In this document: one piece after another, positions 1 to 5,862 of the stretch | How positions within the stretch are numbered: the stretch's first letter is position 1 | Layout of the letters: the number at the start of each line of letters is the position of its first letter | Virus record (IMG/VR): IMGVR_UViG_3300029521_000128 | Location: 1 to 5,882 of that record | Direction: 5' to 3' (one strand) | DNA: 5,882 bases | From: a virus | Lineage: Duplodnaviria > Heunggongvirae > Uroviricota > Caudoviricetes | Notes under the pieces: generated by a model | What the model saw: the letters and a program-made list of their open reading frames with translations, nothing else | The model's database searches: none | What the model was told of the DNA's origin: nothing | Translations under genes and position numbers: made by a program

Positions 1-362
1 CGGGAATATCTACGGCAGCAAGCCAGTAATGGGTTAAGTGATAACAGGTGTCTGGAAATATAGGGGCAAATCCAGGTGGTTGTTGCTTTCCCGTTGCTGA
101 AAAAGAAAACGCCAGACTGTTAGCCGGGTATCAGTTATCTGGAGAAATTTTTAAATACCTCACAATTCAGGCGGTTGACTGTTGTCTGGTTTGCGGGGAG
201 TTTGTTAAAAGAAACTGGCATGGTGAATCCCCCTGTGCGGAGGGGCAATCAGCAACTGGTGTTTTGTCACCGACCCTTATCCTTTCTGTGCGGGTTCAGG
301 TGCTGATACTGAACTCACCGGGAGGCACCCGGCATCATGCAATGGCACATAGCGCCACTCTC
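1..362 (+). promoter_or_regulatory. Structured non-coding leader upstream of a tR'-like terminator; possible late-promoter (pR'/qut-proximal) transcribed region
   Basis: No ORF with an RBS. Several short hairpins (CCCCT/AGGGG near 228-244; GTTCAG/CTGAAC at 294-315; CCGGG/CCCGG at 322-336). The 9-mer ATGGGTTAA at 29-37 matches the initial transcribed sequence of lambda pR' as I recall it. Position is immediately 5' of a strong terminator and upstream of the late genes. Confidence 0.3.
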
Positions 363-398
363 CAGCCCCTCTCCGGAGGGGCTGTTTATATTGATTTT
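363..398 (+). terminator. Rho-independent terminator (tR'-like), perfect 9-bp GC-rich stem plus T-rich tail
   Basis: CAGCCCCTC (363-371), loop TCCG, GAGGGGCTG (376-384), then TTTATATTGATTTT (385-398). Confidence 0.8.
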
Positions 399-416
399 GT
401 CAGATGTGAGTAAACT

Positions 417-448
417 CCTTATGGACTTTGTTGTTTTAGTCCATAAGG
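417..448. repeat. Perfect 11-bp inverted repeat (hairpin) overlapping the 3' end of the reverse-strand ORF
   Basis: CCTTATGGACT (417-427), 10-nt loop TTGTTGTTTT, AGTCCATAAGG (438-448). No adjacent T-run on either strand, so more likely an RNA-stability or recombination-junction structure than a classic terminator. Confidence 0.6.
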
Positions 449-754
449 ACATATTTGCAGAGTGCAACGGTTATTAAAGCATTCATTCAATACGTTATCT
501 GTATTTGTAGGACATTCCTGGCTGTTTTTGATTAAATTCCAGAATGTTTTATTGAATGGTACTACGTTGTAAATGGTTAAAGGTAGCACTTTGTTATTGA
601 GCATGATACCTGTGTGAGTCAGTGTAAATATACTTTCAGGAGGTAAGAAAGCATCCGATTGATACCAGATTATTAATTTTATTTTACTCCATATGACTGA
701 AAAAGATATTCCGCATGATGGCTGGATAACTGTATCAATCACAATCCACTTCAT
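419..754 (-). CDS. Hypothetical protein (111 aa), Ile/Asn/Lys-rich with 5 Cys, encoded in an AT-rich insert; function unknown
   Basis: Intact ORF on the - strand. On the coding strand the start is preceded by AAGGAA at 6-nt spacing (...ACAAGGAAACTAA ATG AAG TGG...). Local GC is roughly 33% against roughly 50% in the flanks. No recognisable domain. Confidence 0.45.
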
Positions 755-1014
755 TTAGTTTCCTTGTTTATGTCTTGCTGGTGATGTTCTGAAAAGTATA
801 AATGATATTTTTGAATGTAAACCATAGAGCAGAATTATTTTTCTGATGTTGTTTATTGTTTATTTAAATGCAGGGTGGTTTATATCTCGTCTTGTAGTTT
901 ATCCATGCATATCTGCTTGATGATGAGGTTTTTATTTAAGGTATGGTTTTGTGTTTTTTCTGTATTACATGTCAGGTATTTTAAAGAATTATTTTTCAGA
1001 TGGTGGAAAGAACC

Positions 1015-2976
1015 ATGGCATTTAAACACTATGATGTTGTCAGGGCGGCATCGCCGTCAGACCTTGCGAAACGACTGACACAAAAACTGAAGGAGGGGTG
1101 GCAGCCATTTGGCAGTCCGGTGGCCATCACGCCTTATACCCTGATGCAGGCCATTGCGGCGGAAGGTGATGTCACCACACCTGTGGTGGTGAAGCCGTCG
1201 GATGGAGAAGGCGCAGTTATCAGCACCACCAGCAACCCGGAGTATTACTTTGTTGTTGCCCTGGCCGGGCAGTCAAACGGTATGGCGTATGGTGAAGGGC
1301 TTCCGCTGCCGGAGACATATGACCGTCCGGACCCGCGTATTAAACAGCTGGCGCGTCGCAGCACTGTCACGCCGGGTGGTGCGTCCTGTAACTACAATGA
1401 CATTATTCCTGCGGACCACTGCCTGCATGATGTTCAGGATTTGAGTAAGTTTTCACACCCGAAAGCCAGCGCAGCTCAGTATGGATGCGTGGGGCAGGGA
1501 TTACATATCGCGAAGAAATTGTTGCCGTTTATTCCGGCGAATGCCGGTATTCTTCTGGTTCCGTGCTGCCGTGGTGGTTCTGCATTTTTGGCGGGCGATG
1601 AAGGTACCTTCAGCGAATCCACCGGCGCAAGCGAGACCTCGGCACGCTGGGGTGTAGATAAGCCACTGTACAAGGACCTGCTTACCCGTACTCAGGCCGC
1701 ACTGAAGGCCAACCCTAAAAATATTCTGCTTGCAGTGGTCTGGATGCAGGGCGAGTTTGATTTGAAACAGGGTGCATACGCCACTCAGCCGGGGCTGTTT
1801 GATTCCATGGTGGAAAAATATCGTTCTGACCTGTCGGAATTCGGAGGTCAGTGTCTCGGGGGCTCTCCGTCATCAGTTCCCTGGATTTGTGGCGACACGA
1901 CCTACTACTGGAAGCAGACTTATTCTTCGCAATACGATGCGGTGTATGGTGCATACAAGACGAAATCCGCAAAAAAAATCTTCTTTGTGCCGTTTATGAC
2001 GGATGAAAACGGGCGAAATGTGGGTACCAACGAGCCGTCAGAAGATCCGGATGTTGCGGATATTGGGTATTACGGAGCCGGTGGTCGAACGGACGCCAAA
2101 ACCTGGACGACGGCTGACCGTAAAACGCATTTTGGATCATGGGCACGTCGTGGGATTATTTCCGACCGTCTGGCAACGGCGATTCTTGTGCATGCCGGGA
2201 GAAACGCTGAATTCATTACCGGAAAACAGCCTGATACGGTGAAGCCCACCGGACCTTCCGGTGAAGGTACGGAGAGAGAGCCGGGAGCCCCGGTCAGTAA
2301 CCGAACCCTGATGAGTCTGCTGGCGTCCGGCGAAGACCTGGCATCACAGGGCTGGCGCTATTATCACAAACCGGCGAGCGGAGACAATGTTAACAAAAAC
2401 ATTGCTGAAGCGGTGGTCAGTGATGCGGGGGCTACGGGAGGTAAGGCCCTGCAACTGAATAAACCGGAAAACCACATCTGGTTTCTGGAGCATGATGCAG
2501 CCGGACAGGGAGTGGAGTTACTGAAGAAGGGGGGACGTGTGAGCGTACGGTTTAAGTTGCCGGGTTCACTGGTGCCGAATCAGTTTGCCCTGGGCATTTA
2601 CTGGCAGTTGTCGTCCCTGCCGGAGGGAGTGACGCTGGCAGAGGAAGGCAACGACATGCTGATGTCCTTCTTCCTGCAGACGGATGCGACGAACCTGAAC
2701 GCGATGCACCACAAGAAGCCGAATGCGAAGCTGGATACGTTCGGGGTCTTTGATAACGGATGGCACACACTGGCTTTTGAGTTTGCCGGAAACAACAGCA
2801 TTCAGGTGACGCCGGTACTGGATGAGAAACGGGGGACGCCGTTCACACTGGTGAAATCTCCGGCATCAGGGGCGGCGGACAAACTGCAACTGACAGGCAT
2901 ATCAAAGGCGGCGACATATACGCTGCTGATTGACAGTGTGAAGGTGGAAGTGAACAACGCGGATGCTGCGGCATGA
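1015..2976 (+). CDS. nanS-p: Prophage-type sialate (9-O-acetyl-Neu5Ac) O-acetylesterase, NanS-p-like: N-terminal DUF1737-like region, SGNH/SASA esterase core, C-terminal carbohydrate-binding-like domain
   Basis: 653-aa ORF (658 aa if the ATG at 1000 is used). GQSN serine motif in VVALAGQSNGMAYGEG, typical of the SASA/DUF303 esterase family. Size and position (downstream of tR', upstream of S) match the large yjhS/NanS-like ORF of Stx-type lambdoid phages. Start at 1015 preferred because the purine-rich GGTGGAAAGAA lies 3-8 nt upstream; the ATG at 1000 has no SD. Confidence 0.85.
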   Translation: MAFKHYDVVRAASPSDLAKRLTQKLKEGWQPFGSPVAITPYTLMQAIAAEGDVTTPVVVKPSDGEGAVISTTSNPEYYFVVALAGQSNGMAYGEGLPLPETYDRPDPRIKQLARRSTVTPGGASCNYNDIIPADHCLHDVQDLSKFSHPKASAAQYGCVGQGLHIAKKLLPFIPANAGILLVPCCRGGSAFLAGDEGTFSESTGASETSARWGVDKPLYKDLLTRTQAALKANPKNILLAVVWMQGEFDLKQGAYATQPGLFDSMVEKYRSDLSEFGGQCLGGSPSSVPWICGDTTYYWKQTYSSQYDAVYGAYKTKSAKKIFFVPFMTDENGRNVGTNEPSEDPDVADIGYYGAGGRTDAKTWTTADRKTHFGSWARRGIISDRLATAILVHAGRNAEFITGKQPDTVKPTGPSGEGTEREPGAPVSNRTLMSLLASGEDLASQGWRYYHKPASGDNVNKNIAEAVVSDAGATGGKALQLNKPENHIWFLEHDAAGQGVELLKKGGRVSVRFKLPGSLVPNQFALGIYWQLSSLPEGVTLAEEGNDMLMSFFLQTDATNLNAMHHKKPNAKLDTFGVFDNGWHTLAFEFAGNNSIQVTPVLDEKRGTPFTLVKSPASGAADKLQLTGISKAATYTLLIDSVKVEVNNADAAA

Positions 2977-3654: not shown

Positions 3655-3870
3655 ATGTACCAGATGGAAAAAATCACAACAGGTGTGTCATACACCACGT
3701 CAGCGGTGGGAACGGGCTACTGGTTCCTGCAGTTGCTGGACAGGGTTTCCCCGTCTCAGTGGGCGGCAATAGGCGTGCTGGGGAGTCTGCTGTTTGGGCT
3801 GCTGACATATCTGACTAACCTGTATTTCAAAATCAGAGAGGACCGTCGTAAGGCTGCACGGGGAGAGTAA
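3655..3870 (+). CDS. S: Class II holin (pinholin), phage 21 S21-like, 71 aa with dual-start motif
   Basis: Translation [71 protein letters not shown]. Two TMDs: a weakly hydrophobic Gly/Thr/Ser-rich TMD1 (SAR-like) and a hydrophobic TMD2, then a charged C-terminus. Met1/Met4 dual start. Strong SD GGGAGACGGGG upstream. Closely resembles the S21 / Stx-phage S holins from memory. Confidence 0.9.
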
Positions 3871-3874
3871 TTCA

Positions 3875-4219
3875 ATGACTCAAAACTATGAACTGATTGT
3901 GAAAGGGATCCGCAATTTTGAGAATAAAGTTACGGTAACTTTAGCGTTACGGGACAAAAAACGCTTTGACGGTGAAATTTTTGACCTGGACATCTCGCTG
4001 GACCGTGTTGAAGGTGCCGCGCTGGAGTTTTATGAGGCAGCAGCCAGAAGGAGCATCAGACAGGTCTTCCTGGATGTTGCTGCCGGGTTATGTGAAGGGG
4101 ATGAGCAGTCGCCGGAAAAGCGCCCCGTAATTTTAGAGGCGCAGGATGTGTTGATAACCTACAGAGGAAAACTACCGGGAATAATTACGGGTTCTCTGAA
4201 GAGTCCGCCGAAATGGTAA
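3875..4219 (+). CDS. Hypothetical soluble protein (114 aa) inserted between holin and endolysin; function unknown (possibly DUF826/ydfR-like by position only)
   Basis: ATG 5 nt after the holin stop, with SD GGGAGAG (3861-3867) at about 9-nt spacing, suggesting co-transcription or coupling with S. E. coli-like codon usage. No TM segment and no recognisable catalytic motif. Confidence 0.6.
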   Translation: MTQNYELIVKGIRNFENKVTVTLALRDKKRFDGEIFDLDISLDRVEGAALEFYEAAARRSIRQVFLDVAAGLCEGDEQSPEKRPVILEAQDVLITYRGKLPGIITGSLKSPPKW

Positions 4220-4457
4220 TTTTACCAGCATATTTTTCATCCAGTAATACAGCAAGCCGCCTGAAAGAGTCTTGTTGTTCCTGAGACCATTTGGGATTGC
4301 ATGATTCAAACTGGATTGATGCCAGCGTTGATTGCATCTGTTCCCTTGGAATTGAGAATGCCAGATATGAGAAGGCGACGGTAAGGGTATTCACGTCTTC
4401 CCGAAGCCTGGAAATGCTGTCGAGCAACTCCTGTAGAGAAATGGTGTTATTGTCCAT
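4185..4457 (-). CDS. Hypothetical protein (90 aa) on the opposite strand, convergent with the 114-aa ORF and overlapping it by 35 bp; function unknown
   Basis: Intact - strand ORF. On the coding strand AGGA lies 7 nt upstream of ATG (...CATGAGGATTATTT ATG GAC AAT...). Candidate -10 TACAAT further upstream. Predicted mostly helical, no TM. Contains some rare codons (AGG, CTA). Confidence 0.5.
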   Translation of the reverse strand: MDNNTISLQELLDSISRLREDVNTLTVAFSYLAFSIPREQMQSTLASIQFESCNPKWSQEQQDSFRRLAVLLDEKYAGKITISADSSENP

Positions 4458-5394: not shown

Positions 5395-5862
5395 ATGAAC
5401 CGCGTACTGTGCGTGGTCATCATTGCCCTGCTGGTGGCCTGTGGTGCGCTTAGTCTGGGGCTGAATCATTACCGTGATAACGCCATTACCTACAAAGCCC
5501 AGCGCGACAAAAATGTCAGAGAACTGAAGCTGGCGAACGCGGCAATTACTGACATGCAGATGCGTCAGCGTGATGTTGCTGCGCTCGATGCAAAATACAC
5601 GAAGGAGTTAGCTGATGCGAAAGCTGAAAATGAAACTCTTCGCGCTGACGTTGCCGCTGGTCGTAAGCGCCTGCGTATCAACGCCACCTGTCCAGGTCCC
5701 GTGCGTGAAGCCACCGGCACCGCCCGCGTGGATAATGCAACCGGCCCCCAACTGGCAGACACCGTTACACGGGATTATTTCACCCTCAGAGAGCGGCTGA
5801 TGACGATGCAGAAGCAACTGGAAGGGGCGCAGGAATATATCCGTACTCAGTGCCTGAAATAA
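5395..5862 (+). CDS. Rz: Rz i-spanin (inner-membrane spanin subunit), lambda Rz-like
   Basis: 155 aa. N-terminal TM helix [20 protein letters not shown] followed by a coiled-coil periplasmic domain. Long stretches ([65 protein letters not shown]) match lambda Rz as recalled. Confidence 0.92.
5615..5800 (+). CDS. Rz1: Rz1 o-spanin (outer-membrane lipoprotein spanin subunit), embedded in the +1 frame of Rz
   Basis: 61 aa. Signal peptide with lipobox LVVSAC (Cys20). Pro-rich mature region [32 protein letters not shown], very similar to lambda Rz1. SD GAAGGAG (5601-5607) 7 nt upstream. Lies entirely inside Rz in a different frame. Confidence 0.9.

Follow-up and report, generated by a model that had tools for sequence, protein, structure and literature searches.

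What kind of gene occupies a short AT-rich segment in the late region of a lambdoid prophage, and how might it act on the host? The segment lies near the left end of the window (the whole stretch of 5,882 nucleotides that was analysed), which is identified as the late region of a lambdoid prophage by its gene content, using the list of open reading frames and Pfam. An earlier note on this DNA had described about 600 bp with a GC content of about one-third. The GC profile bears this out, with 32% against flanks of 50–55%. GC is 0.321 at 395–1014 and 0.319 at 419–1014, as opposed to 0.500 on the left (1–394) and 0.548 in nanS-p on the right (1015–2976). The lowest-GC 596-nt stretch in the entire window begins at 400, with 0.317 against a median of 0.51 for all 596-nt stretches, and the maximal AT-rich segment is 385–1038. 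The note's view that this is separately acquired cargo, oriented opposite to the late operon, is supported inside this lambdoid late region.

We conclude that the gene on the reverse strand of this segment is iraL, a prophage-borne stabiliser of RpoS whose function had been characterised before. With a probability of roughly 0.93, we take 395–1014 to be the iraL cassette of a lambdoid prophage, making an RssB anti-adaptor that stabilises RpoS during growth. The cassette and its neighbours comprise the following features.

189–393, plus strand: STnc100-family prophage sRNA, left border of the cassette (Rfam RF02076, 133.5 bits against a gathering score of 47, full-length model 1–206).
416–449, minus strand: perfect inverted repeat of 12 bp with a 10-nt loop, arms 416–427 and 438–449 (repeat search, RNA folding).
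419–754, minus strand: iraL, coding for an RssB anti-adaptor of 111 aa in the IraM/IraL family (identity to CFT073 IraL, NCBIfam, PDB, dN/dS).
755–787, minus strand: iraL 5'UTR, 33 nt, from the transcription start at 787 to the ATG (match to the 5'RACE sequence).
795–821, minus strand: iraL sigma-70-type promoter, TATACT at 800–795 (−13 to −8) and TTTACA at 821–816 (−34 to −29) (computed geometry; identical in CFT073).
822–1014, no strand assigned: right part of the cassette, AT-rich (~30% GC) intergenic or regulatory DNA from the iraL promoter to the nanS-p start (GC profile).
1015–2976, plus strand: nanS-p, late-operon gene and right neighbour, with DUF1737, SASA esterase and DUF6645 domains (Pfam PF08410, PF03629 and PF20350; RefSeq start equivalent to 1015).

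The open reading frame at 419–754 is intact, starts with ATG and encodes 111 residues on the minus strand. Its Shine–Dalgarno sequence, AAGGA at 765–761, stands 6 nt ahead of the start codon, in agreement with the good ribosome-binding site that had been noticed before. IraL is the IraM paralogue of uropathogenic E. coli CFT073 (c1429), encoded on the potB prophage island, and it has been characterised experimentally as an RssB anti-adaptor that stabilises sigma-S in log phase (Hryckowian 2014, mBio, PMC4045071). The window protein shares 110 of 111 residues with it, the sole difference being L59 here against V59 in CFT073, and 62% of its residues with K-12 IraM. A gene counts as iraL when its nucleotide identity to the entire CFT073 coding sequence reaches 95% or more (PMC4045071); we found 99.1%, as against 70% to K-12 iraM. 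Over a longer interval, 330–1060, the DNA has a mean column identity of 99% with CFT073, and positions 789–921, which include both promoter hexamers, are identical.

According to the earlier note, the protein has no recognisable domain. Only Pfam agrees with this: scans of IraL and K-12 IraM at E <= 0.01 and at E <= 10 gave no family. The homology and profile search that the note had proposed recovered the NCBIfam model NF007393 (IraM; 161.4 bits over a curated cutoff of 121, residues 1–110 on profile positions 1–113 of 114) and, in the PDB, chain 8twd_A of IraM with RssB (E = 1.2e-31, residues 1–78); CFT073 IraL was reached through the literature. PHROGs assigned the protein to phrog_4407, which is listed as function unknown. 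The protein is IraL, all but one of its residues being those of the characterised CFT073 protein (PMC4045071).

An AlphaFold model of IraL, built on 13 family sequences, has a pLDDT of ~80–90 for residues 1–80, with seven strands and a helix at 69–77, and Foldseek superimposed it on 8twd_A with E = 2.5e-9, a TM score of 0.90 and an rmsd of 1.2 Å. Residues 1–78 are predicted to form a PmrD-like antiparallel beta-barrel plus a C-terminal helix; a PmrD-like fold has been described for IraM (PMC10844676). Ten of the 14 IraM residues listed in that paper as contacting RssB are identical in IraL. All five are kept in cluster I, which contacts the N-terminal receiver domain of RssB, three of five in cluster II, which contacts its C-terminal domain (changes T13S and L75I), and two of four in cluster III, whose partners in RssB are the linker and helix alpha-8 (changes H63N and I64V). 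[quoted passage not shown] Position 59 lies two residues ahead of contact cluster III and is I, V or L among the paralogues.

The CFT073 protein interacts with RssB by co-purification and two-hybrid assay, it raises the level and half-life of RpoS in log phase, and its deletion is complemented from the native promoter (PMC4045071). [quoted passage not shown] We infer that the window allele behaves like CFT073 IraL, a transfer made over the single conservative substitution L59V.

The published 5'RACE sequence ACATCACCAGCAAGGCATAAACAAGGAAACCA (PMC4045071) aligns with the window from 787 downward with two mismatches, which puts the transcription start at 787 on the minus strand. The promoter was placed from this sequence and not from a consensus scan; the sigma-70 consensus scan missed the published iraL promoter and returned two other weak minus-strand sites, a count below shuffle expectation. 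Over the −100 to +33 fragment just three bases (−1, +15 and +31) separate the window from CFT073, none of them in the promoter hexamers, and the CFT073 version of this fragment complements a delta-iraL mutant (PMC4045071). The iraL subtype also calls for an upstream region at least 96% identical to that of CFT073 and free of the −35 mutation of the JJ1886 iraL2 type; the 99% mean column identity and the unchanged hexamers agree with this.

At the 3' end of the gene the earlier note had seen an 11-bp perfect inverted repeat. A perfect repeat is indeed present there, its arms 100% complementary, but its length is 12 nt. It spans the last iraL codons and the stop codon (419–421), and in a 116-nt context the minus-strand RNA folds into a structure of −43.7 kcal/mol (z = −5.8 against shuffles) of which the repeat hairpin is a part. 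This hairpin was considered as an intrinsic terminator and rejected. The terminator scan called no minus-strand intrinsic terminator for iraL, and we do not name the hairpin one because no U-tract follows it. It would presumably end or stabilise the iraL mRNA.

On the far side of the promoter, the right part of the cassette contains a 21-nt direct repeat whose plus-strand copies are 90% identical. One copy, AGAATTATTTTTCTGATGTTG at 831–851, is ~45–65 nt away from the iraL start on its upstream side; the second, AGAATTATTTTTCAGATGGTG at 985–1005, lies just ahead of the nanS-p ribosome-binding site. The repeat may be a chance product of AT-rich DNA.

Several other explanations of the gene have to be weighed against the assignment to iraL. 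AT-rich DNA easily yields open reading frames, and this one has no Pfam family, so that the segment might be plain intergenic DNA with a fortuitous frame. The earlier note had made its own proposal depend on conservation of the frame in related loci, and the frame is conserved: 13 further family members, down to 55% identity, are full length and in frame, with 29 invariant positions. Nei–Gojobori dN/dS is 0.13 against CFT073 iraL (two synonymous and one non-synonymous difference), 0.19 against K-12 iraM and 0.11 against the phage 1717 allele, with an overall range of 0.10–0.19 and dS > 1 between paralogues. On this comparison the open reading frame is a genuine gene, maintained by purifying selection. 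Its product scores above the cutoff of a curated family model, the structure of a paralogue has been solved by crystallography, and genetics and biochemistry have been done on a 99%-identical protein (PMC4045071), which leaves the fortuitous frame a negligible chance. Scarcely more probable is a PmrD-like connector that protects another response regulator, such as PmrA, in place of RssB. The predicted fold does match PmrD structures (4hn7, 2rqx and 2jso, TM 0.70–0.75, with 0.75 for 4hn7), and homologues bear the precomputed Pfam tag PF11183, which we take to be the PmrD family, although direct hmmscan of IraL and K-12 IraM against Pfam-A gives none. Over the same 78 residues, however, identity is 14–22% to PmrD and 65% to IraM, and RssB binding and an RpoS phenotype have been published for IraL (PMC4045071). 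Another rival is a plain equivalent of K-12 IraM, that is, a PhoP/PhoQ-induced RpoS stabiliser specific to Mg2+ starvation and binding both RssB domains. The two proteins fall under the same NF007393 model, are 62% identical and share a predicted fold, and RefSeq and phage records use the IraM name; the database labels behind this reading are 'anti-adapter protein IraM' and 'RpoS stabilizer during Mg starvation'. Nevertheless, homology to K-12 iraM upstream of the ATG fades within a few tens of bases and is gone beyond the promoter region, the search for a PhoP box upstream of iraL found isolated half-sites only and no direct repeat with 5-nt spacing, and the four substitutions at contact positions all fall in clusters II and III, where IraM meets the C-terminal domain and linker of RssB. 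We consider this equivalence improbable.

A further alternative concerns expression: the cassette, as the earlier note suspected of such AT-rich cargo, might be silenced by H-NS and matter only under de-repressing conditions. The AT content is well above average (32% GC as against ~50% for the window), with GC of 30–34% and T-rich tracts upstream, and warming CFT073 from 23 to 37 degrees C raises iraL mRNA by 1.6 log2 (PMC12890032). According to its title, Battesti 2012 (PMC3347191) reports H-NS regulation of the K-12 paralogue iraM. On the other side, mid-log LB cultures of CFT073 transcribe iraL from a mapped start, and RpoS falls when the gene is deleted (PMC4045071). Loss of Fur affects IraL as well, with higher levels in a CFT073 fur mutant according to published data, though the best Fur-box match, 11/19, was reached in 965 of 1000 shuffles and is not above chance. 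Silencing of this kind has a real share of the probability and is, on balance, unlikely. Its complete form is contradicted by the log-phase expression of CFT073 IraL (PMC4045071), and H-NS acting as a modulator of iraL is plausible.

Returning to the iraL cassette, where in the prophage does it sit? The earlier note had placed it between a tR'-like terminator and nanS-p, in the slot that holds stx. The terminator, at 363–384 and followed by a T-run, is real (9-bp stem with seven GC pairs in the terminator scan), but it belongs to the STnc100 sRNA and is not tR'. In phage 933W, pR', qut and tR' candidates are annotated right after Q, followed by tRNAs, stx2AB, STnc100, AsxR on the minus strand and nanS-p. 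In the coordinates of our 933W sequence (L006), STnc100 is at 3778–3983, AsxR at 3985–4037 (minus strand) and nanS-p at 4190, and tR' lies ~2 kb upstream of the STnc100 terminator. STnc100 precedes AsxR in 933W, and it precedes the ira gene in CFT073, ATCC 25922, phage 1717 and EH2201. The order in phage 1717 (Stx2c) and EH2201 (Stx2a) is stx2AB, STnc100, a 107-aa IraM-family gene on the minus strand and nanS-p, and in the Stx phages STnc100 stands immediately 3' of stx2B. In the window, the hexamer TTGACT stands at 176–181, immediately 5' of the STnc100 sRNA.

Comparison of the interval between terminator and nanS-p among lambdoid prophages, another check that the note had suggested, delimits the insert. 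In a three-way alignment of the window, phage 1717 and 933W, the common sequence runs from about window position 160 to the end of the STnc100 terminator, and 933W rejoins 4 nt before the nanS-p ATG. The interval is ~205 bp with AsxR in 933W, and ~620 bp with the ira gene and its promoter in the window and phage 1717; positions 822–1014 are missing from 933W and have homologous DNA in phage 1717. In window coordinates, the place of stx is upstream of about 150. stxAB is found between Q, tR' and the tRNAs on one side and STnc100 on the other, on the late-operon strand; the ira gene does not occupy this position but follows STnc100 and is encoded on the other strand. One phage can carry both stx and an ira gene, as phage 1717 and EH2201 do. 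A tRNA scan of the window found none; the Ile/Arg/Arg tRNAs of CFT073 and the Stx phages are further upstream, beyond the window.

A convergent slot for anti-sRNAs in lambdoid prophages has been described (Tree et al., 2014; PMC4104026), and it is in this slot, and not in the stx slot, that the cassette sits. An anti-sRNA of the AsxR/AgvB type was considered as the occupant and rejected; a protein-coding gene stands there, and an Rfam search of the window for AsxR and AgvB (RF02703, RF02702) gave no match at E <= 1. The interval from the STnc100 terminator to the nanS-p ATG is a swappable slot for minus-strand cargo, with the ira version present in the window, CFT073, ATCC 25922 and phage 1717. 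The right neighbour, nanS-p, is intact here, carries a frameshift in ATCC 25922 and has been reduced to a DUF1737 stub by truncation in CFT073, and iraL with its promoter is retained in all three.

Among 5426 complete E. coli genomes, megablast with 380–1020 (641 bp) gave a match in 1446, and in 1428 the match extended over at least 80% of the query; among the matches listed the gene is always annotated 'anti-adapter protein IraM' beside a nanS-p-type esterase. With the open reading frame as query, sensitive blastn found an IraM-family gene in 4758 of the 5426 genomes. The best match was at least 90% identical, and hence of the iraL type, in 1442 records; most of the others were at ~71% (iraM) and a minority at ~77%. 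This last class is the allele of Stx phages, found in 236 of the 5426 genomes, largely O157:H7, and in 41 phage records, of which 32 are named as Stx2-, Stx2a- or Stx2c-converting. It represents a third paralogue of the family.

L004:5252–5575 (Stx2c phage 1717) and L005:5252–5575, minus strand: third IraM-family paralogue, 107 aa, 74% amino acid identity to IraL and 65% to K-12 IraM, 41% GC.

The third paralogue is placed directly after stx2AB and STnc100 and ahead of nanS-p, and our literature search returned nothing that treats this Stx-phage gene.

The C-terminal 30 residues of IraL have a pLDDT below 50 in the AlphaFold model, which predicts them to be disordered. The tail (residues 81–111, window 419–514, minus strand) carries the pattern C81-x10-C92-x4-C97-x4-C102, which, together with P82, I101, P103 and G105, does not vary among the 14 family members aligned, the most distant of which are 55% identical; C14, an interface residue, is not invariant among the same 14. 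The word-indexed homologue search gave Escherichia proteins only, Salmonella RssC not being recovered, and for that reason the conservation of the Cys motif is stated within Escherichia. The corresponding tail of IraM was cut off for crystallisation as proteolytically unstable and was called less conserved, and the structure paper mentions neither zinc nor 'cysteine' (PMC10844676).

These observations suggest three readings that go beyond iraL itself. The slot may be dedicated to convergent cargo, either anti-sRNAs or at least two IraM-family anti-adaptors, each reprogramming a global regulator of the host; the invariant four-cysteine tail may bind a metal or sense redox state and in this way gate the activity or stability of the anti-adaptor; and the third paralogue in O157:H7, linked to stx2c or stx2a, would, if this is true, couple toxin carriage to RpoS control. 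We put these forward tentatively and regard them as rather doubtful.

The rest of the window contains genes for DUF1378, DUF826, a P21-type holin, DUF1327/YdfR, lysozyme and Rz. A second reverse-strand open reading frame (4185–4457, minus strand, 90 aa) lies between DUF1327/ydfR and lysozyme and overlaps the 3' end of ydfR. It belongs to phrog_2411 (function unknown) and has no Pfam family; at the corresponding place CFT073 encodes a protein with 80% identity to it. Within Rz (5395–5862) an embedded open reading frame in the +1 frame (5615–5800, plus strand) has a lipobox-like LVVSAC and a proline-rich body, and looks like a nested Rz1 spanin gene.

How would the cassette act? iraL would be transcribed leftward from its own sigma-70 promoter with the start at 787, convergent with STnc100 and antisense to the late operon. 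The N-terminal PmrD-like beta-barrel of IraL (residues 1–78) would bind RssB, the response-regulator-like adaptor, and RssB so bound could not pass sigma-S (RpoS) to the ClpXP protease. RpoS would then build up even in exponential growth, leaving the general stress regulon primed. Upon induction of the prophage, Q-antiterminated late transcription would presumably interfere with iraL.

A publication of 2014 already covered the gene together with its function, promoter and distribution, RefSeq lists it by the family name IraM, and in this respect there is nothing new in the window. IraL helps to explain the high RpoS of many uropathogenic and Shigella strains during growth, and its prophage location illustrates how phages retune a core stress response. 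Phage resources lag behind, phrog_4407 being without an assigned function and the family without a Pfam model. Beside the corrected readings of the locus ('stx slot', 'tR'' and 'no domain'), some novelty remains in the equivalence with the anti-sRNA slot, the stx2-linked third paralogue, which is without characterisation in the literature searched, and the invariant four-cysteine tail.

The closest known system is CFT073 iraL. The two proteins have the same length of 111 residues, including a QQSP tail, and the genes have the same promoter and transcription start sequence; both genes belong to a lambdoid prophage, in whose late region they are flanked by STnc100 to the left and a nanS-p-type gene to the right. 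They differ in residue 59 (V in CFT073, L here) and by the three base changes in −100 to +33. K-12 IraM (YcgW/ElbA) shares the NF007393 family, the PmrD-like fold, contact cluster I and the four C-terminal cysteines, and its gene is likewise AT-rich (34% GC) and adjoins prophage DNA, that of e14. It differs in having 107 residues as against 111, 62% amino acid and 70% nucleotide identity, and an unrelated upstream region. Its induction is reported to depend on Mg2+ starvation, and it binds both domains of RssB; IraL is active in log phase and was seen to bind the N-terminal domain only.

The IraM-family gene of Stx2c and Stx2a phages (1717 gp43, phage 2851, and Stx2_EH2201, where it is called 'iraM') agrees exactly with iraL in place and orientation, lying after the STnc100 terminator and ahead of nanS-p, with homology extending through the promoter region, but it is 74% identical to IraL at the amino acid level, has 107 residues and 41% GC, and stands directly downstream of stx2AB. 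AsxR and AgvB (Tree et al., 2014; PMC4104026) occupy the same slot on the minus strand, convergent with an STnc100-type sRNA and upstream of nanS-p, and, like iraL, are cargo that rewires a regulatory network of the host; iraL, however, codes for a protein, and AsxR is an RNA sponge of 53 nt that depends on Hfq. The stxAB moron, finally, resembles iraL in being dispensable cargo that lambdoid phages carry between Q and their lysis genes, but lies on the late-operon strand upstream of STnc100, whereas iraL lies downstream of it on the opposite strand.
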